IMG/VR virus record: IMGVR_UViG_3300028569_000010
Length of the DNA stretch: 64,000 nucleotides
Origin: an uncultured virus (IMG/VR IMGVR_UViG_3300028569_000010)
Taxonomy: Duplodnaviria; Heunggongvirae; Uroviricota; Caudoviricetes
Direction: 5' to 3' (one strand)
Under the pieces are notes generated by a model that did no database searches, had not been told where the DNA came from, and saw nothing but the letters and a program-made list of their open reading frames with translations. Below are positions 32,577-54,951 of the stretch, piece after piece; position 1 is the stretch's first letter; each line of letters starts with the position of its first letter. The translations under genes were made by a program, and so were the position numbers.

Positions 32577-32578
32577 AA

Positions 32579-34610: not shown

Positions 34611-34628
34611 ATTGTTTCTCCTTACGGT

Positions 34629-34637
34629 ATTATACAC
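34629..34637 (-). promoter_or_regulatory. Candidate late promoter GTGTATAAT
   Basis: At the head of the leftward arm. Confidence 0.5.
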
Positions 34638-34773
34638 TACTTTGGTGCGATTTGTAGCAAAAAGGTTTTACTGGGGAGGATTGGGTAGTACATTACGTTA
34701 ATAATTTTGAATCGTGAATGAACCACCCCCGAAAAACACGGCACCCCACTGAGAAGATACCTAGAAGATAAAA

Positions 34774-34802
34774 CCCCCCCCAGCGTCAGTGTCAGTGTCA
34801 GT
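34774..34802. repeat. C8 tract and (GTCAGT)x3 at the strand-divergence point
   Basis: cccccccc-agc-gtcagt-gtcagt-gtcagt. Confidence 0.8.
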
Positions 34803-34805
34803 ACC

Positions 34806-34883
34806 TAAGTCGTTAGTATATAAGGAGTTAGGTTCGATAGTCAGCGGCGAGTTTGATGTAAGTCTTTATATATCAACAACTTA
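34806..34883. repeat. Bipartite palindromic element E1 (25-28-25)
   Basis: Boxes taagtcgttagtatataaggagtta and taagtctttatatatcaacaactta. Confidence 0.9.
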
Positions 34884-34913
34884 CGACAAAAACAATTATT
34901 TTGGATTTTTGTC

Positions 34914-34941
34914 TTGACAACTCAAGTTTGCTCTGTATAAT
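34914..34941 (+). promoter_or_regulatory. Sigma70-type early promoter
   Basis: TTGACA-16-TATAAT followed by GTCGATA. Confidence 0.85.
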
Positions 34942-34982
34942 GTCGATATAAGAAGTAAGAGAGAAAGAAAGAGAAAAGAGAA

Positions 34983-35201
34983 ATGGAAAAAGTCACTCAT
35001 ATCAACAGTTTTATTGGTTCGCTTCCCCGCATTGTCCAGAAGAAAATCTGGAAAGTGACCGATACCGATGGTACGGTTGTTCAGTATGTTTCCGCTTCCG
35101 ATAATCGCAAGTATACTGCACAAGCGTACATTGATGAAAAGTATGTCGGTCAAAAACTTGTCCTGACGTTCTCACACTTCAAGGGATTGATGACCCTCTA
35201 A
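34983..35201 (+). CDS. Small hypothetical early protein
   Basis: First ORF after the E1 promoter, purine-rich leader. Confidence 0.65.
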   Translation: MEKVTHINSFIGSLPRIVQKKIWKVTDTDGTVVQYVSASDNRKYTAQAYIDEKYVGQKLVLTFSHFKGLMTL

Positions 35202-35424
35202 TAGAGGGGGTTGATAACGAGAAAAGATTTGATAGAGTATTAGAAAGAGAAAGAGAGAAAAATGAAAACGTTTTACTTCTTCAGTTATGGTGAACACAAG
35301 TTTATCGGCCAAGCAGAATCTACCGATTGGATGACAGCCCAAAAAATTGTTGCAAATGCGACAGGGTTCCCTATCGATGATCTGCTACCCTATAGTTCAA
35401 AAAATATTTGGGAATTCTAAGGGA

Positions 35425-35454
35425 TTGACAAGTTGATAGCCGATACTGTATAAT
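35425..35454 (+). promoter_or_regulatory. Sigma70-type promoter
   Basis: TTGACA-18-TATAAT with GCCGATA in the spacer. Confidence 0.75.
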
Positions 35455-35481
35455 AGAGAAACAAAAGAAAAGGAAAATAAT

Positions 35482-35670
35482 ATGAACAGCCTTGATAAGA
35501 TTCTGGCCGCTATGCGTACTGGTAAGTATGGTAGCGTATTCGACACCGCCGGTAATGTTCACGTTGGTATTATAAATGGCCTCATGCGTGAGGATGGTAG
35601 TGGTAAAAACTGGATTGTTACGATTACTAATAAGACGGTAAGTGAAAACGTGTTTATTCACGCACAATAA
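35482..35670 (+). CDS. Small hypothetical early protein
   Basis: AGGA RBS, follows the promoter. Confidence 0.65.
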   Translation: MNSLDKILAAMRTGKYGSVFDTAGNVHVGIINGLMREDGSGKNWIVTITNKTVSENVFIHAQ

Positions 35671-36020
35671 AACAAGGAGTCAAGGATGATACAGATAGAT
35701 TGGGTACAAATAGGTGTGGGATTTATTGCTGGTATTATTAGTAGTTATCTTGTTTGTGACATTGTTTTTCCCGTAGGAGATAAGGATGAATAAGGTTTTT
35801 ACTGTTGCTTTTCTTCTAGGTTGTATTGTTACATACTTCATTTCTTAATAAGGTGGATAATGTATAACTTTGATGACGTAAACGATATCCTTGCAGAAAT
35901 GCGTGATGAGCGTATGATTGAACCTATTGACGATCCTAACATTCAAACCAACTTTTACGATTGGGCAGAAGTTGTGGGTATTATGTGGGATATTGAACCT
36001 GAATCTACATTCATTTGACG

Positions 36021-36098
36021 TAAAGCCTTGCTACTAAAGGACTTAGAGCGAGGCGGGCGAGGCGGATTCGTCGTAAGTCTTTATCCCACAATGGTTTA
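36021..36098. repeat. Element E2
   Basis: taaagccttgctactaaaggactta-28-taagtctttatcccacaatggttta; TTGACA at 36130. Confidence 0.9.
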
Positions 36099-36180
36099 CG
36101 ACAAAAGTATTTTTTCTTGATTTTTCCGCTTGACATTGCCGATACATAGTGTAGAATAAGCGTACCAAAGGGAGATAATC

Positions 36181-36885
36181 ATGAAAGTTGCAAACGGTAA
36201 TGATAAGTTGGGTAAGGGATGTCTTGTTGTTTCGCGTCCCGTGGGAGATACTTGTCCCTCATCTTGTGCATTTTTGGGTAACGGCTGTTATGCTGAACAG
36301 ACTGAGAAAATGTACCCTAATGTTCGCCCCGCTGGTATGCAAAATGTTATTACTGAAAAGCACCGTATTCGTGCTATGATTCTGGACGCTATTCGGCAGG
36401 GTAAGTCTATCCGCTGGCATGAGCGTGGCGATTGGTTTCTCAATGGTGAGTTAGATTTAGAATATCTCGCCAATGTAACGTGGGCGTGTGAGAGTCTTAT
36501 TGCAGATGGTACAACGCTGCCCGATATGTGGTTTTATACTCATATCTATGATGATCGTCTGGTAAGTCTTAGTAAGTATATGAAAGTATATGCTAGTGTG
36601 CATAATAATGAGGATATGGGTGCGGCTCTTGCGATGGGATTCAAACTCTTCGCATGGTGTGATAGCGACCAGAAAATCGCCCCGAAGCGTCCGAAGCGTA
36701 AAGCCGCCGCTGATGCTTGGCGTAAGAGTCTCCCTAAACTTGTTGTATTGAATGGTACTAAGTTTGTAACTTGCCCCGAGATTCGTCGTGGTCGCGGTGT
36801 TGTAACTTGCACCCCCACTAAGGGTAGTGTATCATGCGACTTGTGCGTTCGTGGTTTGGCTAATGTTCTGTTTCCATCTCACTGA
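36181..36885 (+). CDS. GP88-like phage protein (Cys-rich, possibly Fe-S)
   Basis: GNDKLG...TCPSSC....GCYA, IRWHERGDW, YTH and C-terminal CP...C..C motifs. Confidence 0.65.
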   Translation: MKVANGNDKLGKGCLVVSRPVGDTCPSSCAFLGNGCYAEQTEKMYPNVRPAGMQNVITEKHRIRAMILDAIRQGKSIRWHERGDWFLNGELDLEYLANVTWACESLIADGTTLPDMWFYTHIYDDRLVSLSKYMKVYASVHNNEDMGAALAMGFKLFAWCDSDQKIAPKRPKRKAAADAWRKSLPKLVVLNGTKFVTCPEIRRGRGVVTCTPTKGSVSCDLCVRGLANVLFPSH

Positions 36886-37134
36886 GGATAATATGAAAAG
36901 TTTTACATACGAGTGTGTTACTCTGGAAGATGTATGCAAGCACAATAAACTAGACTATCAAGAAATCGTGCAGGCAGTTTGTGATAGTGATATATCTTTC
37001 GGTAGTAATGCTGACACACTAATGACACGCAGTATGGTGCAGGATATTGTAGATGATTGTTATGAGGATATTTCTGTACAGTTAGATTGGGCCGGTTTTG
37101 ATGATCGAATCCTAATCAGTCTTGGTTCTTGACA

Positions 37135-37212
37135 TAAACCCTTGCCACTAAAGGACTTAGGGCGAGGTCGCCCCGCCAAAATCGTCGTAAGTCTTTGTGT
37201 CACAATACTTTA
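37135..37212. repeat. Element E3
   Basis: taaacccttgccactaaaggactta-28-taagtctttgtgtcacaatacttta; TTGACA at 37244. Confidence 0.9.
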
Positions 37213-37294
37213 CGTCAAATCAAAAAAAATCTGAATTTTCTTCTTGACAACTGAAGTTTGGCCTGTATAATGCCGATATAGAAAGTAAGGAGAA

Positions 37295-37483
37295 ATGAAA
37301 ATGGAAACACTTTATCTGAGCGATTGCTGTGGTGAATATCTCGCGGATGAGCATGTGGAATATGAGGTTTGCCCGCGATGCAAGGAACATTGTGAAGTGT
37401 TGACTGAGGACTACACGACGGTTCCTATGGTTGACGAAGATGGCATCCTGTGGTATGTTCAACTAAATAGGAGAAAGAGATGA
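37295..37483 (+). CDS. Small zinc-finger-like protein
   Basis: SDCCG...CPRCKEHC; AGGAG RBS. Confidence 0.65.
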   Translation: MKMETLYLSDCCGEYLADEHVEYEVCPRCKEHCEVLTEDYTTVPMVDEDGILWYVQLNRRKR

Positions 37484-37701
37484 GTCACCCTGACCCCCTG
37501 TTTGATCCCGATAACTTTTACGAGGACGATATGAATTACGACGATTACAATGACTTTTATGAGGATACGAATGAGGAAACGACCGATGAATCTTGGGATG
37601 ATTCATATGATGATAGTATGGATGGGGATCATGAAAGTGGTTTATCTTCCGCAGGATGGGGAACTGACGAGGACTACGGCTATTACGGAGAAAATGAGTA
37701 A
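37480..37701 (+). CDS. Extremely acidic small protein
   Basis: 73 aa, D/E-rich, no K or R. Confidence 0.65.
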   Translation: MSHPDPLFDPDNFYEDDMNYDDYNDFYEDTNEETTDESWDDSYDDSMDGDHESGLSSAGWGTDEDYGYYGENE

Positions 37702-37907
37702 TGCTACATAGATTTTACGATATCAAATTTGAAAATGAGCAGTTTGCAGAGTTTGCGCATGATAAGGAATATGTGTTGGATGTGCCAGACTATGAAATGA
37801 ATACCCCTCTTGAGAGGCAGGAGTATGTTGGGAATATGCTCGACATTATCGTTGCTGCTAGTGGGCTGAACGTGTGTTCATTTAGCACTGACCACAATAT
37901 TAGTTGA
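37701..37907 (+). CDS. Small hypothetical protein
   Basis: Coupled ORF ending 2 bp before E4. Confidence 0.6.
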   Translation: MLHRFYDIKFENEQFAEFAHDKEYVLDVPDYEMNTPLERQEYVGNMLDIIVAASGLNVCSFSTDHNIS

Positions 37908-37909
37908 CC

Positions 37910-37987
37910 TAAAGCCTTGTCCCTAAAGAACTTAGGGCGAGGCGGGCGGGCCGAATTCGTCGTAAGTCCTTTGGTATCAACATCTTA
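37910..37987. repeat. Element E4 (with an extra single box at 38047-38071)
   Basis: taaagccttgtccctaaagaactta-28-taagtcctttggtatcaacatctta; third box starts 84 bp after box 2; TTGACT at 38104. Confidence 0.9.
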
Positions 37988-38156
37988 CAACCATTTTTCC
38001 AAGAAACCATGTGTCCATTGGTGTGATGAAAAATGTCTCCTAGACCTAAAGCCATATAAAATAAGGACTTAGGGAAAATCCAAAAATCTTTTAAAGATAG
38101 GATTTGACTTTGGTCGATAACTAAGATATAATTCAGCATAAGAAAGAGAGAATGAA

Positions 38157-38342
38157 ATGGTTATCGAAGTTTTCAAGAATGGTCGAACGATTGGTTTTGT
38201 GGTTGCGAAAGATAGGCTGTCTTCGGTCGATCTGATCGTTAAGACTTTCCCCCAAGTGGATCGCGTTGAGACAAATTCATCGCTCCCCAAGAGTGATCCG
38301 CGATGCAAGGAAATCGCAGAAAATGTTTACGCTTGGGCTTGA
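38157..38342 (+). CDS. Small hypothetical early protein
   Basis: First ORF after the promoter at 38104-38132. Confidence 0.6.
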   Translation: MVIEVFKNGRTIGFVVAKDRLSSVDLIVKTFPQVDRVETNSSLPKSDPRCKEIAENVYAWA

Positions 38343-38392
38343 CACCCTACCAAAACTTGCTAGAATCCAACCAACACAGAAAAGGAAAGAAT

Positions 38393-38710
38393 ATGAAACA
38401 GAAATTTGAGATTATCGAAAACGCTAAGAAACAGGCCCGCATGTGCTTCCTCGGAATCGCTATCCCGACCGAAGTGAAGAATATCGACGGAGAGATGATA
38501 CAGGTCGAAAAGGTTCTCAAGTTCAATCGCAAGGCACTTCGTAACATGGGTAAGGATCATCGCAAGCAAAGTGTCGATCCTCGCTATATTGGGGGAGAAG
38601 ACAAGATGATTGTGAAAGTTGGCAAGCCAGGAAGCAAAGAGCGTGTGGAGGCTTTGGCTCAGATGTACGCAAGTGCGGGAGATGCTGACTACTCCGCTTT
38701 CAAAGACTGA
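38393..38710 (+). CDS. Hypothetical protein
   Basis: MKQKFE start with AGGA RBS after the promoter at 38339-38366; stop is 3 bp before E5. Confidence 0.6.
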   Translation: MKQKFEIIENAKKQARMCFLGIAIPTEVKNIDGEMIQVEKVLKFNRKALRNMGKDHRKQSVDPRYIGGEDKMIVKVGKPGSKERVEALAQMYASAGDADYSAFKD

Positions 38711-38713
38711 ACA

Positions 38714-38791
38714 TAACCCGTTGCTGCATAAGGACTTGCGGCGAGGCGGGCGGGCCGAATTTGCCATAAGTCTAATGATACCAACACTTTA
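38714..38791. repeat. Element E5
   Basis: taacccgttgctgcataaggacttg-28-taagtctaatgataccaacacttta; TTGACT at 38822. Confidence 0.85.
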
Positions 38792-38886
38792 TGTCTAGAA
38801 AGATTTTTCTAAAGATTATGCTTGACTCTTGACGATCTATACTGTAGAATGTAGAAAAGTTGAAAGTCTCACTAAAAGGAAAAGTT

Positions 38887-39291
38887 ATGAATGATTTGGT
38901 TGTTATTTCTGGTGGTTGCTTTGTTCTTGCTTGTGTTGTTTTGTTTGTATTCTATTACATTTTGAATGGGGTTCATGGTTCACTCGCCAACTCTAATGTT
39001 GGAGAAATCTATAACTTTGAATATGAGCAACCCCTTACTGGAGAGTATAGGCGTTTTCTCGCTAAAGTTGTCTCTCCCGTTGTGATGATGACTGATAATG
39101 ATGTAAAGAGGTTGAACGCTAAAAGTAGGTATCGTAGGTATGATCCCAACTTCGTTCGTGGTAAGTGTTTGGTCACTTGTCAAATGGTTGACGGTACGAT
39201 CCGTAACTTCTACGCTGAACGTACTAGGAATGTCCGTAAGTTGCCTGTAAAAAATAAGTTGCTCTATAAAGTTGCATCATTCATGATTTGA
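38887..39291 (+). CDS. Membrane-anchored hypothetical protein
   Basis: N-terminal hydrophobic helix; C-terminal domain ends DGTIRNFYAER (SH3/WYL-like, weak). Confidence 0.6.
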   Translation: MNDLVVISGGCFVLACVVLFVFYYILNGVHGSLANSNVGEIYNFEYEQPLTGEYRRFLAKVVSPVVMMTDNDVKRLNAKSRYRRYDPNFVRGKCLVTCQMVDGTIRNFYAERTRNVRKLPVKNKLLYKVASFMI

Positions 39292-39305
39292 TTGCTGTTT
39301 CGTCC

Positions 39306-39383
39306 TAAGTTGTTGCAAACACAGCACTTAGGGCGAATTCGGCGGGCTGGGATCGACGTAAGTCCTTTCATATCAATAACTTA
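39306..39383. repeat. Element E6
   Basis: taagttgttgcaaacacagcactta-28-taagtcctttcatatcaataactta; TTGACA at 39404. Confidence 0.9.
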
Positions 39384-39673
39384 GGATAAAATTCAAGTTT
39401 GTCTTGACAGATGTCGATACATGGTGTAAGATGGTATGCACAAAGGAGTTATGTATATGTCAAAAGAGGAAGATTGGGTACAACCGGAAGAAGAGACAGA
39501 ATGGCAACTCTTGGTAGAGTGGGAGGAATGGGTAAGATCACACCCAACCCCACCGACGCGGGAGGATGGGCAGTCCTGCCCAAACTAGAAAGATCATTGA
39601 TTTTTCCGCATAGCCAGCACGTTTGCCTAAAGTTAGACTTGACAGATGGACGATAATAAGGTATACTGAGCAT

Positions 39674-40186
39674 ATGAATATATTCGTATTAGATAACGAT
39701 CCGCGAACGTCAGCAGAGTATATGTGTGATAAGCATATACCTAAGATGATCGTAGAGACATTCCAGATGATGGGTAGTGCTTTGAGGCGTCATGGTGCTA
39801 CAGATGAGCAGATGCCACTTACGCAGGCCGGAAAACCCCTAGTTGGTGGATATAAACATCACCCGTGTACCGTATGGGCGGGAGATAGTATATGTAACTT
39901 TGTCTGGTTAGGAATACATGGTATATCATTGTGTGACGAGTTTATGCTACGCTATCGTAAAGTCCATAGTTGTGATATGAAAATACGTCAAATGTGTGAA
40001 CTTATGGATATGCTGCCAAATATACCGCAAACACCATATGCACTGGCTATGCCAGATGAGTATAAGTCAGAAAATGCTATTGACTCTTACCGTCGATACT
40101 ATACAATGGAAAAGGCTCGTTTTGCCAAATGGGAGAAGGGCCGCGAGGCTCCATGCTGGTGGAATAAGGAGGAATGTTATGTATAA
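39674..40186 (+). CDS. Pyrimidine-dimer DNA glycosylase/endonuclease V-like protein
   Basis: MNIFVLD...A...CDKHIPKMIVE...HHPCTVWA...AMPDEYK...SYRRYY; ATG 6 nt after a -10 box (leaderless). Confidence 0.8.
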   Translation: MNIFVLDNDPRTSAEYMCDKHIPKMIVETFQMMGSALRRHGATDEQMPLTQAGKPLVGGYKHHPCTVWAGDSICNFVWLGIHGISLCDEFMLRYRKVHSCDMKIRQMCELMDMLPNIPQTPYALAMPDEYKSENAIDSYRRYYTMEKARFAKWEKGREAPCWWNKEECYV

Positions 40187-40427
40187 TATATTTGATAGTT
40201 ATGAACCATATGAACTTCGTGATATGTATAATGATGGCATGAATAGTTGGCCTGACGATTTTAGGCATTGGATGCACGACCAAATGGCTAATGATTTGTT
40301 AGACCAGTGGCTTGAAACTGTTACAGATGAAGAGTATATGGAACGTGCTAAAGATATTATTGAATCTGAAACGTATGGATATGAAGATGAGGATGGTAAC
40401 GAAATGCTAGATTTCAAGGTGGAATAA
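40178..40427 (+). CDS. Acidic hypothetical protein
   Basis: MYNIFDSYEPYE start (approximate) after AGGAGG RBS. Confidence 0.55.
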
Positions 40428-40592
40428 TGGTAGATTATACTGATGAAACATTCTCAACCGTAGAGCATATCGCTAATGGTAAGGGGCTGGCATTAGTCTG
40501 TAATTATCACTATGAGTTGACAAACGCTGACGGTGTGGTATACTGGTCTTATTATCTCAGGGACATCCTAAACTTTCTAAAGGAATATAAAA

Positions 40593-41075
40593 ATGCCTAA
40601 TTGGTGCATGAATAATGTTACTATTACTCACCCCAAGCGTGATAAGTTGCAGGAGTTTGTTGACGCATACAATAGTGGCGGCGTGTGTAACCATTTCGCC
40701 CCACAGCCTAAAGACTTGAACGAACATGACTGTTTTGCCCCCAATGGGTGGTATACTTGGCGTTGTAATAACTGGGGAACTAAATGGGATTTTGGTAGAG
40801 AAGATGGACAAGACCCTATAGAGATTATCAACGATGAAGTGAGTTTTAGTTGTCATACTGCGTGGTCGCCCCCCATTGAGTTTTACAATATGCTCCAGAA
40901 GAAAAAGTATAGTATTCATGCTACATACTGGGAACCCGGTATTGGATTCTGTGGAACATACGAGAATGGCGTAGAAGATACTATTGAATATGAAGATAAG
41001 TCTGAAATTCCAGATGAGTTGTGGGATGAGTATGGAATGGCAGACTTTTTCGAAGAGACGGAGGCTGACGCTTGA
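40593..41075 (+). CDS. DUF1281/YubB ferredoxin-like family protein, copy 1
   Basis: MPNWCMN...WYTWRCNNWGTKWD...TAWSPP...YWEPGIGFCG. Confidence 0.75.
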   Translation: MPNWCMNNVTITHPKRDKLQEFVDAYNSGGVCNHFAPQPKDLNEHDCFAPNGWYTWRCNNWGTKWDFGREDGQDPIEIINDEVSFSCHTAWSPPIEFYNMLQKKKYSIHATYWEPGIGFCGTYENGVEDTIEYEDKSEIPDELWDEYGMADFFEETEADA

Positions 41076-41118
41076 CCTGTGCGAGACTGTGTGGTATACT
41101 CATGCAGTCTCGCATATT

Positions 41119-41191
41119 GGGGGTGTAACTTAGCGACTAAAGTAGCGGTCTTTTAAACCGTTTATCGTGGGTTTGAGTCCCACCGCCCCCA
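41119..41191 (+). tRNA. tRNA-Lys(UUU)
   Basis: Acceptor GGGGGTG/CGCCCCC; anticodon arm gcggt-ctTTTaa-accgt; T arm gtggg-tttgagt-cccac. Confidence 0.85.
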
Positions 41192-41403
41192 TTTCTTTAT
41201 AAAGGGTGTATTATGATAGAGTTATATGTTATGATTATGTTATGGATTTTGATCTTTGGATTTACTGGAGATAATCATGGAGAGTAACTTTGTATATAAT
41301 GAATACGTTATGGGTGACGCTGACTACTACGAAGACCAAGAATACCCTAAACAGACTTGGGACTACTATGAACTCTATGGTGAAGAGATAGACGAACTAG
41401 ACG

Positions 41404-41481
41404 TAAGTAGTTGATAAATAAGGACTTATGGATGATGCGAGCCGCCGAACTTGATCTAAGTCCTTGTGGCGTAAAGACTTA
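41404..41481. repeat. Element E7
   Basis: taagtagttgataaataaggactta-28-taagtccttgtggcgtaaagactta; TTGACA at 41513. Confidence 0.9.
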
Positions 41482-41562
41482 CGACAAATAAATATTTTTC
41501 AAGGTTTCGCTATTGACAAGCCGATAATAGAGTGTAGAATGGTGGAGTAAGACAAAACAAAC

Positions 41563-41644
41563 GTGATGCTGGCAAAGTGGAGGCCACAACCTAGTTGTCG
41601 GGTAAAACCAACTCTCGCCTTTAGAGTAAAGAGACAACCATCAC
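41563..41644 (+). ncRNA. Candidate structured ncRNA (multi-stem junction)
   Basis: Downstream of a strong promoter with no convincing ORF; GTGATG/CATCAC closing stem encloses four short hairpins. Confidence 0.4.
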
Positions 41645-41764
41645 ACAAACATCCGTGGGTTAATGCCTTGAACTAGATTAGGATAAGCCATTACGATAAA
41701 ACCTGCTGGAGATGCAGCATAAAGGTTGACAGCGGGCTTATACGCTGTATAGTAGTGCTAGTCT

Positions 41765-41939
41765 ATGGGGGATAGCGTCCCGACCACGACGCAATATCAT
41801 CAAGATCAAAACCAAAAAGCCTTGGGAAATGTCAACGGGTCATAGGGAAGATCGATATACCGTAATGGACAATCGGCCCAAGCGGCTGCGAACCCGTAAG
41901 GCTCTTGACAAGCAGTGGCGTAACGAGTACGATATCTAA
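41765..41939 (+). pseudogene. Frameshifted paralog of the 46847-47047 basic peptide
   Basis: RPRRNIIKIKTKKPWEMSTGHRED...MDNRPKRLRTRK is out of frame with the ATG by one G in a G5 run. Confidence 0.55.
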
Positions 41940-41953
41940 ATAAGGAAAATACT

Positions 41954-42484
41954 ATGCCTAATTGGTGCATGAATAGTCTGACGGTTTCCCATACCGATAA
42001 GGATATGGTTCAAAAGTTCGCTGACGCATGGAACTCTGGTAGTAGGTGTCAACAGTTTATTCCTATGCCAGAGGGTGAAGATTCGACGATGAGCGGCCAA
42101 CGTCGCGGCGCAACGCTCGTCGAGATGCTCGTCGTCATCGATTGGTATTCTTGGAATATTTCAAACTGGGGAACCAAGTGGGACTTTGGTAAGGAAGAGT
42201 ATGAAGATGCCGCTGAAGTAAATCAGAATAAAGATAAATATGAGGTTTGTGTTGGCCTAAACACCGACCCATCGCCACCCATTGACTTCTATAACCATCT
42301 GGTAAAACTTGGATATAATGTTCACGCCAGTTATTTTGAGCCGGGAATGGGATTCTGTGGTATATATCACGATGGATATGATAACTACATAGACTACGGT
42401 GATGACAAGGATAGTATTCCTGTTGGTGTATGGAATGACTTCGGCTTGGATGATTTCTTTGAAATGATGGAAGAAGACGCTTGA
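41954..42484 (+). CDS. DUF1281/YubB-like protein, copy 2, with a 20-aa prepilin-leader insert
   Basis: Paralog of 40593-41075; insert STMSGQRRGATLVEMLVVID. Confidence 0.75.
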   Translation: MPNWCMNSLTVSHTDKDMVQKFADAWNSGSRCQQFIPMPEGEDSTMSGQRRGATLVEMLVVIDWYSWNISNWGTKWDFGKEEYEDAAEVNQNKDKYEVCVGLNTDPSPPIDFYNHLVKLGYNVHASYFEPGMGFCGIYHDGYDNYIDYGDDKDSIPVGVWNDFGLDDFFEMMEEDA

Positions 42485-42836
42485 CAAGTCGATAATACAT
42501 AGTATAATAAGAGAACAATACAAAGGAAAAAGAATGAGAATCTTTCGTAAAATCATTTTGTTCTTCCCATCATTGACCATGTTCTTTTTAGCATACTTTA
42601 CTTTCATTTGTGATAGTGAGGCTACTAAATTTAGTTTTAGGTGGAAATAATGACTAAAGACAATATTATTGCTGCTAAAGCATTTATTCAAGTACGAGAA
42701 GAACTCATAGAAATTAAGAGTCTGGTTAGACAGTTTATAGATGAAATTGCGGGCGTCCCTTTTAGGGCTGTTGACTGTGACCAAGAAGCCGTGTATGATT
42801 TGTGGAACAAACTAATTAAAGCAGCAGGATCGACCA

Positions 42837-43061
42837 ATGACCGTTAATGAACTTATTGAGGCTCTGAACCACTATCCCGGCGATATGACGGTATTGACCC
42901 TTGGTTATGAGGGTGGGTATGATGATGTGGGTATACACACCGAAGATATTGTGTTCAATGTTCATGATAAAGACACCTGGTATTATGGGCCTCATGAGTG
43001 TGTGAAGTATACCGATAGTGATATTAGTATGAAATGTTTGATTGTTGGAAGAGGTAGGTAA
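42837..43061 (+). CDS. Small phage hypothetical protein
   Basis: MTVNELIEALNHYPGDM.V...GYEGG pattern. Confidence 0.6.
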   Translation: MTVNELIEALNHYPGDMTVLTLGYEGGYDDVGIHTEDIVFNVHDKDTWYYGPHECVKYTDSDISMKCLIVGRGR

Positions 43062-43065
43062 ATAT

Positions 43066-43380
43066 ATGGAGTGGAATAACTCTCATAAGAATCCGCCAGA
43101 GAGTGGACAGAAGGTTTATTACTTTGGGCCTAACATTGGCATAGGTATTGGTTTTTATTCTTACGAAAAAGATAGACACTTTTATCCAATCTACTATAAG
43201 AATGGCATAAAAATGTTTGACCCTAAACCAGTACAACTTTGTCCACATATATTTGAGAATGTTAACTTGGGAGTGGTAGACGCTTGTGATGCTCCGTTCT
43301 GGCTACCATATGATTACGAACGGGCTAAGAGTTGGTGTCCGATTATTCCAGAAGAATATACCAAAGATTTGTACGACTGA
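43066..43380 (+). CDS. Hypothetical protein
   Basis: MEW...PPESGQKV...FWLP, DUF551-like outline (weak). Confidence 0.5.
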   Translation: MEWNNSHKNPPESGQKVYYFGPNIGIGIGFYSYEKDRHFYPIYYKNGIKMFDPKPVQLCPHIFENVNLGVVDACDAPFWLPYDYERAKSWCPIIPEEYTKDLYD

Positions 43381-43503
43381 ACATGGAATTGAAAACTCTT
43401 AGCGATATTTGCCCATGTGGGGCGTGTGAAGTTTTAGTATGGAAATACGACAATAATGGCTTAATCTGGAATTTTTGCCAGCAATGCCACTGGTGGTATG
43501 TCG

Positions 43504-43581
43504 CAAATGATTGATAGATAAGGACTTACAGCTAGGTGGGCGGGCCGGATTTGACCTAAGTGCTTATATATCAACAACTTA
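43504..43581. repeat. Element E8
   Basis: caaatgattgatagataaggactta-28-taagtgcttatatatcaacaactta; TTGACT at 43602. Confidence 0.9.
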
Positions 43582-43770
43582 GGATTTTCTAAAGTTTTCT
43601 CTTGACTTTGGACGATGATAGTGTAGAATCATGAGTATGAATACTAAATATATTTGGCGTGTTTTTAAAAATAACAAGTTTATTGGTTACGTTTATTCGC
43701 CTAGCGAAATAGACGCAATGCGTAAGGCTAATGAAAAGTTTGGTTCTTATATTCTTATTGAGCGTATAAG

Positions 43771-44247
43771 ATGAAAACTTTATATGGCGAAGTGCGATTT
43801 CACCTGGGTGGTGGAGCCAATTATATGCACTGGCAATTGAAAATTAAACAAGGTGGCAAGACCGTAGAAGTTTGCTATTTTGATCCGTCTGAGTATCAGT
43901 TGGAGATGAGGGGTTGCAAACTCCGTAACCGTCCTAATAAAGCCAAGCAAGTTTTTGAGGCTGGTGTGCATGATGTGAGTGGCTGGGTAAGATGTGAAGA
44001 AACAATGTTGAGAAAAAGTTTTTATCCTGTTTTGCCTGTTGACAATCTTGAGCGTGTGTTTTATAATCCACTGCGTGACCCACACTGGCGACGAGAAAGT
44101 GATAATAATGAGTTTATTTGGGATGAGACTGAGTATGCTACGCTGATTACGCATGGCAAGCAAGTGTACATTCTAGAAGAACACGACTGTGTATTTGACG
44201 ATCTTAGAGAAATTGACCCAAAGTATTTAGGAGATTTTAAGGTATGA
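43771..44247 (+). CDS. Hypothetical protein
   Basis: 158-aa ORF coupled to its neighbours. Confidence 0.6.
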   Translation: MKTLYGEVRFHLGGGANYMHWQLKIKQGGKTVEVCYFDPSEYQLEMRGCKLRNRPNKAKQVFEAGVHDVSGWVRCEETMLRKSFYPVLPVDNLERVFYNPLRDPHWRRESDNNEFIWDETEYATLITHGKQVYILEEHDCVFDDLREIDPKYLGDFKV

Positions 44248-44612
44248 TTAGTATTCAGGTGACGATTGCCGAGGCTATTGCTATTGCTAACACGGCGAGT
44301 AACGATCTGCATGATCGTATCGTGAAGAGTATCGAAGTGGCTCTTGGTATCAATCAGAGTCGTGATGTAACGATTACTAAGATGCCGGGAGATAATCGTA
44401 TTCCTTGTATCAAGGCTATTCGCTCGCACTCTGGATGGGGCCTGAGAGAGGCTAAAGAGTGGACGGATGTGTTGGTTGGGCGTTGGGATAGCACTTATAA
44501 TGGTTGGACTAAGGGTGCCTCAAAACACACCATTAAGTTGGCAACCCCCGCCGCAGCCGAGGCTCTCATGCGTGATCTGGTTGGTTTGGGTTGTGAAGGG
44601 TTTCTTTCTTAG
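44244..44612 (+). CDS. Ribosomal protein bL12 (L7/L12) C-terminal-domain-like protein
   Basis: VTIT..GDNRIPCIKAIRSHSGWGLREAKEWTD...AAEALMRDL..LG matches the KI.VIK.VR..TGLGLKEAK..V pattern. Confidence 0.7.
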   Translation: MISIQVTIAEAIAIANTASNDLHDRIVKSIEVALGINQSRDVTITKMPGDNRIPCIKAIRSHSGWGLREAKEWTDVLVGRWDSTYNGWTKGASKHTIKLATPAAAEALMRDLVGLGCEGFLS

Positions 44613-44620
44613 GAGTAACA

Positions 44621-45226
44621 ATGCTTAAATACAAAAAGTATTACGGGCAGTATACTGACGGCGGTAGTCGTAACAGTTTCTATACTATTAAAGATAGTAA
44701 ATATGGATTTAAGGAGTTTCCTAGTAAAGATTTGGCTATATTTTCATACGCCGTACAAAAGAAACTTTCTGAACATAATCTTGCCCCATATGTATACAGT
44801 CAAGTAGGACGTATTCGTATTCCAGAATATATTTCTACAAAAGAAGGTATAACTAAAACTCACGATATTCTTAGTGGGTGGGGTTACTTGACTGAAATAG
44901 CACAATTTTATGAATGTGCAAACTATGGAAATGATTACGAATGTGACGAACATTGTTATTACGAGGGTAACTGTAAAAACTACGATAAAATCTCTACTTT
45001 ATTTGATATGGCATCAGAACTTGGTATTGAGTACTCTGATGGTCATAATGGAAATCTTGGCTGGGTAAAACGTAATAGGAGAAAGACTCTTGTTATCATT
45101 GACCTTGGGCGTGAAAGTATTGGAGATTATGATCGTGGTATTTACCCTAATGTAGATGAATATGGAGAATACGACGATTACAATAACTATAGTGGTTGCT
45201 CATGTACTGCCTGTAGGAAATGGTAA
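44621..45226 (+). CDS. Protein kinase-like fold protein
   Basis: YGFKEF (catalytic Lys), LAPYVY, SDGHNGNLG (DxHxxN loop), IIDLG (DFG-like). Confidence 0.65.
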   Translation: MLKYKKYYGQYTDGGSRNSFYTIKDSKYGFKEFPSKDLAIFSYAVQKKLSEHNLAPYVYSQVGRIRIPEYISTKEGITKTHDILSGWGYLTEIAQFYECANYGNDYECDEHCYYEGNCKNYDKISTLFDMASELGIEYSDGHNGNLGWVKRNRRKTLVIIDLGRESIGDYDRGIYPNVDEYGEYDDYNNYSGCSCTACRKW

Positions 45227-45471
45227 TGCCTAAATACTACATAAACTGCGGCACTTTACAACTTATATACTCAACTGATAAAAATGCAGAAGACGCTGCC
45301 GTTTCTGCACTGTGGGAAACAAACAAGAATGACGTTCTAGATGAGTACTTCTACATAGACGAACGTGGATATAGAGACTACACAAACGCAGACAAAGAAA
45401 CTACGGTCATAAAGATGAAGACAATCTGTAGGAAAGCAGGATGGGAGATAAATAAGGAAGATAATTCATAA
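45226..45471 (+). CDS. Hypothetical protein
   Basis: Its stop TAA is the first three bases of E9 box 1. Confidence 0.6.
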   Translation: MPKYYINCGTLQLIYSTDKNAEDAAVSALWETNKNDVLDEYFYIDERGYRDYTNADKETTVIKMKTICRKAGWEINKEDNS

Positions 45472-45546
45472 GTCCAAGTGGCATAAGCACTTAGAGCTAG
45501 CCACGCCCGCCGGATTCGCCCTAAGTCCTTATCTGACAACAACTTA
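45469..45546. repeat. Element E9
   Basis: taagtccaagtggcataagcactta-28-taagtccttatctgacaacaactta; TTGACA at 45578. Confidence 0.9.
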
Positions 45547-45651
45547 CGTCAAATTCTTTTTTTCTAAAGAGAATGGCTTGACAGAGACGATAATTAGAGT
45601 ATACTTAGGACATGATGATTGATAGCCTACTAAATGAAAAAGGAGATGATT

Positions 45652-45894
45652 ATGAAAAAGTTTACGTTTCGCGTTGATGTGCTGAGTGATTCGTTTGTCG
45701 ATGTTGATGGTATTCGTCAGACTCTTTCTGAGGCTGTGAATGGGCTGGGTGCCTATACTGCCGCTACCCCAACTGGTACTGAGGATCTGACCGACCAGGG
45801 TCTGAAGGTGTTCGCAAAGCGTGTCATGGGCATTAGCCTTGCAACGCCGAAGGTGAAGAAGGCCAAGGCGGTCGCTGAAACTGTCGAGGCTTGA
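45652..45894 (+). CDS. Hypothetical protein
   Basis: AGGAG RBS before MKKFTF; GC-richer codon usage. Confidence 0.6.
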   Translation: MKKFTFRVDVLSDSFVDVDGIRQTLSEAVNGLGAYTAATPTGTEDLTDQGLKVFAKRVMGISLATPKVKKAKAVAETVEA

Positions 45895-46125
45895 TTTTCT
45901 AAAGTGTATCTGCTAGAATGACGATACTAGATGAAGTAGTAGTAATCTAGTGTCCATTCTGGCTAACTAAAGGATGTAATATGAAAGTAGTTGGTATTGG
46001 TACTAAACTCAAACTGGGTACAGTACTGAAGATTTTGAAGGATAGTGTGATTGTAAATCGTCAAGGTAAGAATGTCGCTGTGACGTTCTCTCAAGTTGAA
46101 CATGAAGTTTTTGGAGGTTGATATT

Positions 46126-46341
46126 ATGGGTTATCTTGCTCTTAGTAAGGCTATTCGTGTTGGTAAGACGCTTCGTTGTAAGTATCCGAAGCACGGTAGT
46201 CAGAATGTGTTGAAGTGGCATGAGGGTGTTATTGAGAAGGCCGACTTTGGCCCTAATGGTGCCTATGCTCTGATTCGTTCTGATAGTAATAAGTATCGTA
46301 CCCTCCGCTGCGATAAGATGATCGACGCCACGGTGTCGTGA
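46126..46341 (+). CDS. Small SH3/WYL-like hypothetical protein
   Basis: GGAGG RBS; C-terminal YRTLRCDKMI resembles the WYL RxFxxDRI motif (weak). Confidence 0.5.
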   Translation: MGYLALSKAIRVGKTLRCKYPKHGSQNVLKWHEGVIEKADFGPNGAYALIRSDSNKYRTLRCDKMIDATVS

Positions 46342-46392
46342 CCTTGACGGGGCGAGTAGCCCATGCTATAATGGTGTGGGCTACTCGTTTGC

Positions 46393-46468
46393 GGGGCGGA
46401 AGGTAAGCCGGTTGCATCCGACACTCTTATAAGGTGTTCATAGGTAGGTTCGACTCCTACCCGCCCTA
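46393..46468 (+). tRNA. tRNA-Ile(UAU)
   Basis: Acceptor GGGGCGG/CCGCCCT with A73; anticodon arm acact-ctTATaa-ggtgt; T arm gtagg-ttcgact-cctac. Confidence 0.85.
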
Positions 46469-46638
46469 CTGTTCGGGTTTACGAACTGTGGAGGGTGCAT
46501 GATAGAACTATTTATATTGATATGGATATGGAGTATGCTATTCTCAGATAAAAACTAAATAATATAACGAATGTGGATTGTGTTGAGACAAACTAACGTA
46601 ATAAATAAAGCGTCAAATGAATCCCTAATATTCAATAT

Positions 46639-47019
46639 ATGAGAAGGACCGAAAGGATGATACAGTGGATTGGTGCTTTCGTGGCAGTACTTGGCTTACT
46701 ATATACTGGTGTAAAAGATTATCAGCACGGAGATATATCTTTCCCCAAAATAAAACAGAAAGAGTTGACAAAGCCAAAGCATCCGATACAATACTGTCTA
46801 ATGGCTTACGACCCTAACCTAAATAAAGTTTTTTACTTACACGAAAATGGACAATGGCATGATTACGCTCCAGAACAACGACGATATGAGACAACGCCGC
46901 AAGGTGTTCAAGATCAAGGTAAAGAAACCGTGGGAACTATCTACGGGACACAGGGAAGATCGCGGGGATACTACTATGGACAACAGGCCCAAGCGTATGC
47001 GAACACGCAAAGACATTGA
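46639..47019 (+). CDS. Membrane-anchored hypothetical protein (overlaps the next ORF)
   Basis: N-terminal TM segment WIGAFVAVLGLLY. Confidence 0.45.
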   Translation: MRRTERMIQWIGAFVAVLGLLYTGVKDYQHGDISFPKIKQKELTKPKHPIQYCLMAYDPNLNKVFYLHENGQWHDYAPEQRRYETTPQGVQDQGKETVGTIYGTQGRSRGYYYGQQAQAYANTQRH

Positions 47020-47047
47020 GCGTTCGTGGCAGATGGAGAATGACTAA
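46847..47047 (+). CDS. Basic peptide (KKPWE.STGHRED...MDNRPKR.RTRK)
   Basis: Protein-level paralog at 41765-41939 supports this frame. Confidence 0.6.
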   Translation: MDNGMITLQNNDDMRQRRKVFKIKVKKPWELSTGHREDRGDTTMDNRPKRMRTRKDIERSWQMEND

Positions 47048-47191
47048 TGTATCACTATATTACTGTGCAGATTGTGATGCGTGACTGTCATTCTGAAGAG
47101 GATGCACAAATGAAATGCGAAAGATTGTTACCATATAATCCAGATGAGAATTCTACTTATATGGAATCGTGGGAAATAATAGATGTAAGAG

Positions 47192-47428
47192 ATGCCAAAG
47201 ATGAATAACGAACATATAGGAACATACATATATGATGAACGCTTAGACTATGGTGTTTATGAAGTATATGCTATGTATGACTCATGGAAAGATCGTGATA
47301 ACAGAAACGCCGCGTGGTATGACATATATGACAAAAATGGAATATGCGTAAACGAAGGTAATCCATACTACCAAATACCTACGTGGCAAGAGATATTTGA
47401 TACATATTATATGGAGCATGTGAACTAA
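47192..47428 (+). CDS. Hypothetical protein
   Basis: 78-aa ORF before E10. Confidence 0.55.
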   Translation: MPKMNNEHIGTYIYDERLDYGVYEVYAMYDSWKDRDNRNAAWYDIYDKNGICVNEGNPYYQIPTWQEIFDTYYMEHVN

Positions 47429-47460
47429 GGCTTGGGAAGACTAGACACCGCGATTCGTTC

Positions 47461-47538
47461 TAAGTCCTTGATGCGACAAGACTTACGGCGAATCCGGCCC
47501 GCCGAATCGATCCTAAGTCTTTATGTGGCAACGACTTA
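47461..47538. repeat. Element E10
   Basis: taagtccttgatgcgacaagactta-28-taagtctttatgtggcaacgactta; TTGACT at 47571. Confidence 0.9.
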
Positions 47539-47617
47539 CGACAAATCCAAAAAATCCTAATGCTAACCCCTTGACTTGGACGATTATAGATGTATAATCA
47601 GCGTACTGGAGAAAAGA

Positions 47618-47857
47618 ATGATTGCCTTCGCTAATGCAGACAGTGTTGTAGAAGTTGGATGTGCTATGTGTGGTACATCATATGCAATTATGTATAATCG
47701 TGAGGATATGGTAGATTGGTTGTCTGGTCAAGGATTTATTCAAGACCTTATGCCATACCTTTCTGATGCTGAACGTGAACTGTTTATCTCTAGAACGTGC
47801 GGAGACTGTTTCGATAAACTGTTTCCAGCCCCTATTGACAACGAAGAAAACGTCTGA
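47618..47857 (+). CDS. Small zinc-binding protein
   Basis: CAMC...IQDLMPYLSDAERELFISRTCGDCF; GGAG RBS. Confidence 0.6.
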   Translation: MIAFANADSVVEVGCAMCGTSYAIMYNREDMVDWLSGQGFIQDLMPYLSDAERELFISRTCGDCFDKLFPAPIDNEENV

Positions 47858-47896
47858 TACAATACACTAAGTTGATTTCCCACTACTAAGGAGTTT

Positions 47897-49108
47897 ATGA
47901 TGATTTCTGAATATACTAAGATTGTCCCTGTTGATTCTACGAAGAATGCTGGTTCGTTTGTGCGTAATCTTACTGGTAATACTGGTACGGGTTTTGCGGA
48001 AGGTACGCATGTTCATAAGGATTGGTGGGCTAAGACCCTTTCCTATGATACGGTTCTGACTCGCGTTCAGGCCGATATTGATAATCGTGAAGATATTATG
48101 GTCAAGGTGAAGGATATTCACCCTGAGTTCAATGAGCAGGATCAGTTCTGCTTTGGAGTTGACGGTCGCCAGTTTGTTCCTACGGATTGGAGTCTCCAGC
48201 AGTTTTCTACTCGCCTTGCGGCTCCCTCTACTTCTGTCATGCGTGAAATGCGTGGCGTCGAAGGGTTTGATCGTCAAGATGCAGAGTTGATGGTTGATTT
48301 TGCCAATAACTATCTGCGTAGGCTTGATCCTGACAAGGAGTTCCGCCTGCGTACTTATGTCGATGGTACTTGTCGTGCGTTCGTGACTGATAAGTATGCA
48401 CCTGTCGATAATCGCTGGTATCTTGAAACTCTCCGCGAGTTCCTGCCCAGTGCTAGGTTCTCACACTGGCGTGGAGATGAGGATACCCTGTATGGTAATC
48501 TTCTCCTTCCCGATAGTATTATGGACTATGGACAGGATGACGATACGGATTATGGTGGAATGGTTTCCATCGGTAACTGCGAGATCGGCAAGCGTCGTTT
48601 GTCGCAGACTCCCAGCATCTTTCGTGCTATCTGTATGAACGGGTGCATTTGGGGTCAGAATAAGGGTAAGGATATTTCCAAGGTTCATCGTGGAACTATC
48701 GACCTTATCGACCTAAAGACTCGTATCGCTGAGAATATCGAATATCAGTTGAGCATCCTGCCCGATGGTATTAGAAAGTTTCTTGACACTCGTACTCAGA
48801 AGATTGGTACGCATAGTATCAAGGGTGTAATCGCTGCGATTTGCGATGATTATCGCCTTGATAAGAAACAGTCTACGGAAGTGCTGGAACAGTTTATCAC
48901 CCACGAACACGATCACCAAAATCTGTTCGGTGTTATCAACGCCGTCACCCGTGCTGGTCAAGAATTCAATGCGGAAGCATGGTACAATCTTGATGAAGTT
49001 GGTGGAAAGTTGATGGAAGTTTCTGCCGCTCGTTGGGATACCATCCTGCGTCGTGCTGATACCTACACCTACAAAGAATATGAGAAGGTTTTTGCCGTAA
49101 TGGCATAG
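47897..49108 (+). CDS. DUF932-family protein
   Basis: RAFVTDKYAPVDN...GNCEIG...IFRAICMNGCI...H.G...NLFGVINAVTRAGQ. Confidence 0.75.
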   Translation: MMISEYTKIVPVDSTKNAGSFVRNLTGNTGTGFAEGTHVHKDWWAKTLSYDTVLTRVQADIDNREDIMVKVKDIHPEFNEQDQFCFGVDGRQFVPTDWSLQQFSTRLAAPSTSVMREMRGVEGFDRQDAELMVDFANNYLRRLDPDKEFRLRTYVDGTCRAFVTDKYAPVDNRWYLETLREFLPSARFSHWRGDEDTLYGNLLLPDSIMDYGQDDDTDYGGMVSIGNCEIGKRRLSQTPSIFRAICMNGCIWGQNKGKDISKVHRGTIDLIDLKTRIAENIEYQLSILPDGIRKFLDTRTQKIGTHSIKGVIAAICDDYRLDKKQSTEVLEQFITHEHDHQNLFGVINAVTRAGQEFNAEAWYNLDEVGGKLMEVSAARWDTILRRADTYTYKEYEKVFAVMA

Positions 49109-49118
49109 TGGGAAGGGC

Positions 49119-49170
49119 ATGGCGGTTGGGGTGCATAATCTATAACTTATCCCCCAGCCGCTATCCTTTT
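49119..49170 (+). terminator. Hairpin terminator after the DUF932 gene
   Basis: atggcggttggggg...cccccagccgctat followed by cctttt. Confidence 0.6.
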
Positions 49171-49183
49171 CGCCCTCTTGACG

Positions 49184-49261
49184 TAAACCCTTGTAGCCTA
49201 AAGACTTAGAGCGAACGGGGCGCGCCGAAATCATCCTAAGTTCTTATGTAGCAAGGACTTG
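49184..49261. repeat. Element E11
   Basis: taaacccttgtagcctaaagactta-28-taagttcttatgtagcaaggacttg; overlaps TTGCGT-17-TATAAT. Confidence 0.9.
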
Positions 49262-49432
49262 CGTCAAGTCGCCAGTTTTGTTATAATGGGATGTGTGGGT
49301 ATTCTCTATTGTCTATGTGGTATAGATAACATAGAGATATTGGACAATTTTCCCTCAAGTTCAGCGGCTGTCTCAGCCGATATAATAAGGTATTGCTAGA
49401 TATTCACAGTCAGCGAAAAAGGAGATTTTTAT

Positions 49433-49660
49433 ATGCAGAATGACGCAAAAATAATTGACAATCCAGATGTATGTAATTTAGTAATGACGGAGAAGGGTAA
49501 GCCTGAAGGATATCTTATGTGTAAGGCTATGAATGTATTTGATAACAAGTATCGCGTTAACATATATAGTAAGCGCCTCGTAGATGGTATAGAGGGTAAC
49601 GCTATAAGCCACACTTATTTTGTATCTTACGCAAAGGATAAGATTAAGTTCTTGTCCTAG
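49433..49660 (+). CDS. Hypothetical protein
   Basis: AGGAG RBS; NVFDNKYRVNIY motif. Confidence 0.6.
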   Translation: MQNDAKIIDNPDVCNLVMTEKGKPEGYLMCKAMNVFDNKYRVNIYSKRLVDGIEGNAISHTYFVSYAKDKIKFLS

Positions 49661-49807
49661 CTTATCTTATAAGGTACTGCCACATGCTGATAGTCAGCGA
49701 GTTTCGCTTGACTTTAGTGTGGCCCTGTTGTATAATTATATGGTCGTGTCTTATCTAAACAAACAAAGTATTCCGTGATATCCACAGTCAGCGTATAAGG
49801 AGCTATA

Positions 49808-50236: not shown

Positions 50237-50261
50237 GTTTATATATTATGAGTCAGGATGT

Positions 50262-53928: not shown

Positions 53929-53940
53929 TGTAGTGTCAGT

Positions 53941-54013: not shown

Positions 54014-54017
54014 TTTT

Positions 54018-54272: not shown

Positions 54273-54277
54273 CTAGA

Positions 54278-54358: not shown

Positions 54359-54361
54359 TTT

Positions 54362-54947: not shown

Positions 54948-54951
54948 GTTA

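Follow-up and report, generated by a model that had tools for sequence, protein, structure and literature searches.

A 57-nucleotide piece of planctomycete chromosome, probably captured recently by a gene of an uncultured freshwater phage

Phages acquire host genes, such as morons and auxiliary metabolic genes, by illegitimate recombination. Filler and templated insertions accompany the repair of double-strand breaks by non-homologous or alternative end joining and by template switching. The Rickettsia palindromic elements are palindromic mini-elements that lie in frame within protein-coding genes. Identical stretches in phage and bacterium are also used for host prediction: Edwards et al., 2016 (PMC5831537) report that, for some 40% of 820 phages, the longest exact match points to the correct host species, and short exact phage–host matches serve the same end (PHIST, PMC8826084). 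Kavagutti et al., 2019 (PMC6802176) list Planctomycetes among the predicted hosts. The window analysed here is a stretch of 64,000 nucleotides (nt) from an uncultured virus of the Caudoviricetes (IMG/VR record IMGVR_UViG_3300028569_000010). One of its genes, coding for a DUF1281-like phage protein of 176 amino acids (aa) at 41954..42484 on the plus strand, carries a GC-rich insert that encodes the beginning of a bacterial prepilin-type protein. We put the probability at about 0.8 that this insert is a recent illegitimate capture of chromosomal DNA from a planctomycete host.

The insert makes up residues 44–63 of the protein; STMSGQRRGATLVEMLVVID is encoded within the open reading frame (ORF), in the protein context ...PMPEGEDSTMSGQRRGATLVEMLVVIDWYSWN.... 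The GC content of 42084–42139 is 66.1% (37/56), against 40–44% in the remaining ORF and 29–43% in 2-kb windows across the record. GATT occurs at 42080 and again at 42140, at a spacing of exactly 60 bp, and GACGATGAGC and GCTCGTCGTC form an inverted repeat with 9/10 positions matching. The segment with its coordinates, the 66% GC (37/56), the GATT repeats 60 bp apart and the imperfect inverted repeat had been described in a first-pass annotation made from the letters of the sequence, and all were found again. At 63.3% GC, the 60-bp insert belongs to the top 0.05% of all 60-bp windows in the 64 kb. It is exceeded at one other site (0.65, at 39522) and equalled at two (0.633, at 44540 and 46297); the status of GC outlier is, on its own, not unique to the insert. 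It is the identity with a bacterial contig at 57/57 positions, combined with the empty site of the homologues, that places the segment far beyond chance.

The recipient gene and a paralogue without the insert (40593..41075, plus strand, 160 aa, 44% identical) both match phrog_20518, with E values of 1e-13 to 1e-16. The paralogue also matches Pfam DUF1281_C (PF18406) at E 9.5e-4, under the cut-off (19.5 bits vs 22.8), and the 176-aa ORF matches neither PF06924 nor PF18406. For the AlphaFold2 model of the latter, the best Foldseek match in the PDB is 2ijr (Api92, DUF1281), a weak one (E 7.2e-3, probability 0.98, TM 0.33/0.22).

A scan of IMG/VR with the 176-aa protein gave 77 loci, of which 47 were aligned with both window proteins, making 49 sequences. 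Left out were 25 rows that appeared to be duplicates by their identical match statistics (including L004, L006 and L011), the partial matches L033, L035, L047 and L076, and L036, whose frame stops after 46 aa. The insert is present in 0 of the 47 aligned homologues, and the translations of L004, L006 and L011 are without it as well. In L001 and L002, the closest loci by tblastn (72% and 67%), and in L010, the site reads GAA GAT TGG TAY, and in the window it reads GAA GAT T(57 nt)AT TGG TAT; the blastn alignment of L001 with the window matches on either side of the segment with exactly 60 nt absent. A search of 5.8 billion proteins found a nearer relative, P0017, with 93% identity across the aligned portion. 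It and the other four of the five nearest proteins fetched (P0018, P0019, P0022 and P0023) all read PEGE-DWYSW, without the 20 aa. Nothing similar to the insert was seen in the other homologues, whether the 47 aligned or the 120 listed. Among GenBank phages, there was no nucleotide match to window 38500–46000, and by protein there were three distant matches of 29–32% identity to Puniceispirillum and Roseobacter phages, which are uninformative on the host. Because the closest phage homologues show the empty site GAA GAT/TGG, the event is an insertion of 60 bp, made up of 57 nt from a donor and a duplicated target of 3 nt (ATT), which becomes 4 nt when an ambiguous G is included. The comparison of orthologues suggested in the first-pass annotation has thus revealed the empty site in L001, L002, L010, P0017 and others.

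A bacterial source for the insert was also found. A scan of metagenome contigs with a 33-mer of the insert returned one record, L078, a contig of 1814 nt and 66.6% GC, and its positions 119–175 are identical to window 42084–42140 (plus strand) at 57/57 positions, with zero differences. The captured piece consists of the last 8 nt of an upstream gene and the first 52 nt (codons 1–17, MSGQRRGATLVEMLVVI) of the next. The upstream ORF, which we take from its end to be PEP-CTERM-like, finishes with ...VPEPSAIVTGLVGVAAALVFAGRRRNSRR and a TGA that overlaps the following ATG. The donor gene encodes 336 aa and matches N_methyl (E 1.1e-5; 25.2 bits, above the cut-off) and DUF1559/SBP_bac_10 (E 2.1e-46). 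It is followed on the opposite strand by a pseudouridine synthase gene, and the two genes are also neighbours in 4 of the 5 related genomes examined, with 74–80% nt identity. The donor context is chromosomal. The captured piece is an arbitrary piece of chromosome, neither a gene start as such nor an mRNA end; capture of the 5' end of an mRNA was considered and rejected, as the piece starts within the upstream gene. Like morons and auxiliary metabolic genes, it moved from host to phage, but those are whole functional genes, and the uptake of just 17 codons and 8 nt of a neighbour argues for accident rather than function.

The donor belongs to one narrow lineage, because its leader is missing even from its own 90% protein cluster: MSGQRRGATLVEMLVVI occurs in 0 of the 13 other members fetched, 12 of which are full-length and begin MRRTRRGVTLVEILVVV. 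The exact 33-mer had 0 matches in 185,579 species genomes (one genome per species). Relatives of the donor protein were found at 77 loci in GTDB genomes, the best at 83% aa identity, and the best match to the 57-mer among these loci was 45/57. The titles of the 77 loci are almost all those of lake Planctomycetota, Planctomycetia or Pirellulales metagenome-assembled genomes (MAGs), some of the labels being obviously automatic. The start of a bacterial prepilin-type gene, with a planctomycete DUF1559 gene as donor, had been proposed from the letters alone, and the 57/57 match, the Pfam matches of the donor and the titles of its relatives bear this out. The GC content at third codon positions (GC3) is 0.80 in the insert and 0.81 in the donor contig, compared with 0.41 in the remaining ORF and 0.256 in the phage. 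The transfer ran from bacterium to phage, as judged from the donor-like GC3 and from the homology of the stretch, along its length, to all orthologues. As a separate observation on L078, a short repeat at 1150–1186, between the DUF1559 and pseudouridine synthase genes, has dozens of copies in the genomes G002 and G001 (90–100% identity over 23–37 nt) and resembles a REP-like element of these planctomycetes.

At the junctions, the donor flanks read ...CTCG/57 nt/CGAT... and the phage flanks ...GAAGATT/57 nt/ATTGG.... The sequence common to donor and phage amounts to 0 nt at the left junction and, at the right one, to 1 nt, a G. The two copies of (G)ATT on the plus strand (42080..42083 and 42140..42143) are the duplicated phage target and not microhomology, because the donor has GATT at neither end. 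The G at 42140 is common to the donor, which makes the duplication certain for 3 nt with a maximum of 4. The microhomology-mediated insertion envisaged in the first-pass annotation is therefore not supported in that form.

The ends of the captured piece also carry an imperfect inverted repeat (42085..42136, plus strand; arms at about 42085–42095 and 42126–42136), which is native to the donor gene. A mobile mini-element of the miniature inverted-repeat (MITE) or insertion-sequence (IS) type was considered and rejected: the window contains no further copy of the insert with up to 3 mismatches (the single match being the insert itself), IMG/VR holds 0 matches to its sequence, and the metagenome contigs show only the donor gene. 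The 3–4 nt duplication and the 11-bp imperfect terminal inverted repeat flank and end the insert, but the repeat is no hallmark of a mobile element, because it is part of the coding sequence of the donor. The Rickettsia palindromic elements are likewise short, hairpin-capable DNA, in frame and tolerated in a loop; they are repeated, whereas the phage insert is single-copy and part of an ordinary bacterial gene. The hairpin as a structural signal was likewise rejected, since the 86-nt context folds no better than shuffled sequences (z = 0.05).

Two further features of the ends were noticed, and the tests of both were chosen post hoc, after the observation. When the 57-mer is folded as DNA, 11 of its first 12 nt pair with the 3' end, a pattern seen in just 0.3% of 586 57-nt windows from the donor contig; its free energy is ordinary, 11.4% of these windows being as stable. 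The next 30 nt of the donor and the next 30 nt of the phage contain a patch with 10/12 matches (TTGG..TTCTTG; shuffle p = 0.0095), a level reached by 4 of 255 real donor 30-mers. A right junction guided by this homology was rejected, as a crossover within the patch gives an insert of 62 nt that is out of frame; the patch may have been an aid or may be coincidence.

We propose that the phage genome broke between the GAT and TGG codons of the DUF1281-like gene in the course of an infection, that 57 bp of chromosomal DNA from a freshwater planctomycete of Pirellulales type (the L078 lineage) became joined into the break, and that the phage bases there, ATT or GATT (3–4 nt), were duplicated. The break may have been staggered, its ends being filled in and ligated around a stray fragment. 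Alternatively, the polymerase with its nascent strand may have switched to host DNA and back, re-priming on one base and re-copying 3 nt. Fill-in end joining and template switching fit equally well. The insert totals 60 bp, and the resulting frame is by chance that of the donor, so that the phage ORF stays open and contains MSGQRRGATLVEMLVVI. Filler insertions at repaired breaks resemble this case in their short foreign fragment, in the 0–1 nt of homology and in the duplication of a few bases of the target. Among the 38 window ORFs scanned, none was identified as an end-joining or topoisomerase gene. A literature search on phage illegitimate recombination and target duplication returned nothing relevant, and whether such a scrap has been reported before is not settled by it. 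The case is a well-resolved example of an exact phage–host match and of illegitimate capture of host DNA, not a new type of system. Donor, recipient, empty site, both junctions and the 3–4 nt duplication are known at zero divergence, which allows the mechanism to be discussed from real data.

The insert is present in several assemblies. Logan contigs of four lake-water runs (X1, X3, X4 and X5) were compared with window 41500–42800. In X1, record 3 (1536 nt, with a depth of 26, equal to the flank depth) covers 41522–42800 with no differences and includes both junctions. Record 7 of X3 begins 30 nt within the insert and continues as phage to 42419, thus including the right junction. Record 12 of X4, which spans 42084 to 42800, includes it as well; its first 104 nt are bacterial upstream sequence, which we interpret as a crossover of the assembly graph in the 57-nt repeat where coverage is low. 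X3 and X5 also have separate contigs that match only 42084–42140, with GC-rich, unlike sequence on both sides; these represent the bacterial version. The exact 176-aa protein, which requires both junctions, is found on 7 contigs from JGI/IMG, Logan and ENA, the longest of 165,383 nt. As to an empty-site allele of the same phage, no contig joins across the insert in X1, X3, X4 or X5; contigs drop rare variants, and fixation is not implied.

Because the 57 nt show zero differences and the GC3 is unameliorated, the event appears to be very recent. The donor lineage is quite likely the host of the phage, this being the simplest reading, because phage DNA recombines where it replicates. Phage and donor co-occur in the same runs. 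The idea that the insert is a host fingerprint, already voiced in the first-pass annotation, is plausible in the light of the 57/57 match, the chromosomal context and the direction from bacterium to phage. Exact-match host prediction similarly takes an identical stretch in phage and bacterium as a sign of infection. The stretches used there are mostly attachment sites, spacers, prophages and conserved genes, and the one described here is a non-homologous 57-nt scrap in an unrelated ORF.

Further material on the host question comes from genomes of the donor's family and from the tRNA genes. Of the latter, nine are present in the window (Lys-TTT, Ile-TAT, Glu-TTC, Thr-TGT, Gln-TTG, Asn-GTT, Ser-ACT, Tyr-GTA and Gly-TCC), at 41118–41192, 46393–46469 and 53940–55888, seven of them clustered at 53.9–55.9 kb. 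Seven of the nine decode triplets that the phage uses often and the donor contig seldom (AAA, ATA, GAA, ACA, CAA, AGT and GGA), which speaks for the donor lineage as host, and tRNA-Lys is 81–89% identical over 44–58 nt to tRNA genes of the donor's family. A total of 176 genomes of this family were searched with window 32000–51000 and window 1–20000 (39 kb together), two candidates being scored per genome, with no positive control. The matches of window 32000–51000 were the insert, tRNA-Lys, one contig of genome G011 (C37, locus L167) and three isolated weak ones (in G172, G137 and G033; E 2e-4 to 6e-3). The G011 contig is a planctomycete chromosomal contig of the donor's family with PSCyt1, PSCyt2 and PSD1 genes. 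From about 5400 to its end, it carries an island of lower GC beside a tRNA-Met gene, with a recombinase-like ORF (no Pfam match), an HTH_17 protein, an N6 methylase and a fragment of a RuvB-like ATPase. At 12018–12230 lies a truncated fragment, about 200 nt long, of a DUF1281-like gene from this phage clade. Its AT content exceeds that of the surrounding sequence; it encodes the loop ...DESSPHYWY... typical of L005 and L013 and is 76% identical to L013 at the nt level over 110 nt. It is a transfer from phage to host, opposite in direction to the insert, and suggests two-way exchange of DNA between these partners.

To our knowledge, phages of Planctomycetota are hardly known. The present one, from a freshwater lineage not yet cultured, has a genome of 165 kb or more and encodes tRNAs of its own, and the scrap gives it a testable host hypothesis. 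This hypothesis pairs a phage of 29–43% GC with planktonic Pirellulales of about 67% GC, a combination that a composition-based predictor would never propose.

Several points weigh against recent capture from the chromosome of the phage's own host. The GC gap, 29–43% in the phage against about 67% in the donor (25–35 points), is unusually large for a phage and its host; phiKZ-like Pseudomonas phages have a similar one. Window 1–20000 matches 0 of the 176 donor-family genomes, and no spacer-like match was found between these genomes and the 39 kb searched, absence being more than the search settings can show in either case. The donor contig is short (1.8 kb), and the set of 185,579 species does not contain its exact lineage. 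The left junction is covered only in X1, possibly the window's own sample, since the contigs of X3–X5, with a depth of 2.5–4, end before it. The junction evidence consists of assembled contigs alone, not raw reads, and the 7 contigs with the exact protein may stem from few samples. Neutrality of the insert is assumed; a near-invariant Trp has been lost too, so the gene may be changing its function.

Among the alternatives, the one that survives best is that the insert derives from a planctomycete by an indirect route, having reached the phage within another host via transformed environmental DNA, a transducing particle, a plasmid or another phage, in which case it would say nothing of host identity. 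We consider this unlikely. It would accommodate the large GC gap, the lack of a CRISPR-like or other independent match to the 176 genomes in the 39 kb, and the presence of the phage in X1 at a depth of 26 with no contig branching from the donor. The extra step makes it less parsimonious, however, and the 57/57 identity with unameliorated GC3 suggests a very recent event between co-occurring partners. The DUF1281-like fragment in the planctomycete island is a second exchange in the reverse direction, and the tRNA set of the phage suits a GC-rich host.

Capture as a neutral accident also has to be weighed against selection for the captured signal, which might bind the prepilin peptidase or the membrane of the host as a decoy or interfere with processing. 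The answer depends on what the insert does to the protein. It lies in the linker between a PxP motif and a WY..NWGTKWD motif, which ranges from 1 to 45 aa in the 49 aligned sequences. In the AlphaFold2 model of the 176-aa protein, the mean pLDDT is 89.8, with 55–62 for residues 41–60 and 84–98 elsewhere. The insert, modelled as a low-confidence loop, is probably tolerated by the fold, because the length of the linker varies freely in the family. The prepilin motif at residues 45–62 has the Gly and Glu(+5) (RRG/ATLVE), but it stands behind a folded strand–helix unit and is not N-terminal. Pfam N_methyl (PF07963) scores 12.7 bits on the 176-aa ORF (E 0.099), below the cut-off of 21.2. In prepilins, the cleavage site is followed by a hydrophobic helix some 20 residues long. 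The captured run, ATLVEMLVVI, has 10 residues and then gives way to DWYSWN, whereas the donor continues AIVGVLAGLLLPAV. The DUF1559 domain (PF07596) covers donor residues 32–318, the insert stops at donor residue 17, and the 176-aa ORF has no DUF1559 match. The donor is thus a full member of the type IV prepilin-like DUF1559 proteins of Planctomycetota (PF07963 and PF07596), of which the insert holds the leader and the first 10 mature residues; the phage protein lacks the DUF1559 domain, and its motif is internal and truncated.

Most likely, the pilin signal does nothing in the phage protein. Selection for a functional signal would be favoured by the frame, which is that of the donor, by the retained G(-1) and E(+5) positions and by the insert-bearing allele being the sole one seen in the four runs. 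It is nonetheless highly improbable: the motif lies inside a protein of cytoplasmic type, from residue 45 on, its Gly is followed by just 10 hydrophobic residues before D-W-Y-S-W-N, and N_methyl stays under its cut-off. An open ORF needs no special explanation, because the 57-mer is open in 4 of its 6 frames (read by hand) and one third of insert lengths keep the downstream frame. Moreover, zero substitutions leave no evidence of selection, and the homologues, aligned or listed, have nothing similar. The prepilin-peptidase decoy of the first-pass annotation is unlikely on the same grounds: an internal motif (45–62), 10 of about 20 hydrophobic residues, and 12.7 vs 21.2 bits. A shade less credible still is co-option of the leader, whose basic residues, Gly/Glu(+5) and half-helix would give the protein affinity for the host prepilin peptidase or the inner membrane. 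If it were true, the phage could disturb the maturation of the prepilin-type (DUF1559) proteins, of which the planctomycete has a very large set, possibly to block superinfection or remodel the envelope, and the loss of the Trp would mean a change of function rather than decay.

That Trp belongs to a near-invariant Ala-Trp pair, which is replaced by Asp105-Pro106 (codons GAC CCA, 42266..42271, plus strand). At this site, the aligned homologues have Trp in 48/49 and Ala in 46/49 sequences; L001 and L002 read GCA/GCG TGG. The change appears to be recent as well, because P0017, at 93% identity, still has Ala-Trp. The contrast between TDPSPP in this ORF and TAWSPP in the paralogue (40593..41075) had already been pointed out and was seen again; it had been taken to mean that the gene may be decaying or chimeric. 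The loss of a Trp kept in 48/49 homologues agrees with this view, and the intact ORF does not. Long-term decay is rejected, as the long-term dN/dS of the insert-bearing gene (0.126) equals that of the orthologues L001/L002 (0.125) in all but the last digit. We conclude that the gene remained functional until recent times and may now be drifting or shifting. Apart from the window gene, record 18 of X5 represents a second related phage variant, with 9 differences in 99 nt from window 42287–42385; its sequence before 42287 encodes ...NTAWEPP..., keeping the Ala-Trp lost in the window gene.

The weakest explanation, an assembly or library chimera of phage and bacterial reads, can draw on the 57 nt common to phage and donor, on record 12 of X4, which links bacterial upstream to phage downstream sequence, and on the evidence being contigs rather than raw reads, but it is next to negligible, because without the insert both genomes share at most 4 nt at the site and a k = 31 graph is unable to join them, X1 has phage–insert–phage at flank depth with the right junction seen again in X3 and X4, the identical protein comes from three pipelines on 7 contigs, and the event is a clean one of 60 bp, after which the phage sequence resumes at the same base with 3 nt duplicated.

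The remainder of the window shows several features of its own. The GC content is blocky over window 1–64000, at about 29–35% in 1–22, 24–34 and 50–64 kb, 41.6% at 22–24 kb and 37–43% over 34–50 kb. The higher-GC block coincides with a region of small plus-strand genes that have TTGACA/TATAAT-like motifs upstream. On the minus strand lie three very large structural ORFs (302–8707, 10303–13770 and 15825–21464, of 2801, 1155 and 1879 aa) with repeated domains that match baseplate-wedge, virion-structural and RCC1-like PHROGs, and genes for a terminase and a prohead protease are found at 27.3–30.0 kb. A 73-nt direct repeat of 75% identity occurs at 41782–41854, upstream of the 176-aa ORF, and at 46890–46962, 5.1 kb downstream, which suggests duplicated small-gene modules in the region. 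Finally, an intergenic element of about 91 nt is present in nine copies within 36015–49268 (at 36015, 37129, 37904, 38708, 39300, 43498, 45463, 47455 and 49178), which are 62–79% identical to the reference copy. Nested inverted repeats, TTGACGTAAAG.../...CTTTACGTCAA and AAGGACTTAG.../...TAAGTCCTT, surround its GC-rich core GGCGGGCGGGCCGAAT. The copies lie between the small plus-strand genes of the 34–50 kb region, and the element may serve as a regulatory or terminator module, or else represent a small mobile repeat.

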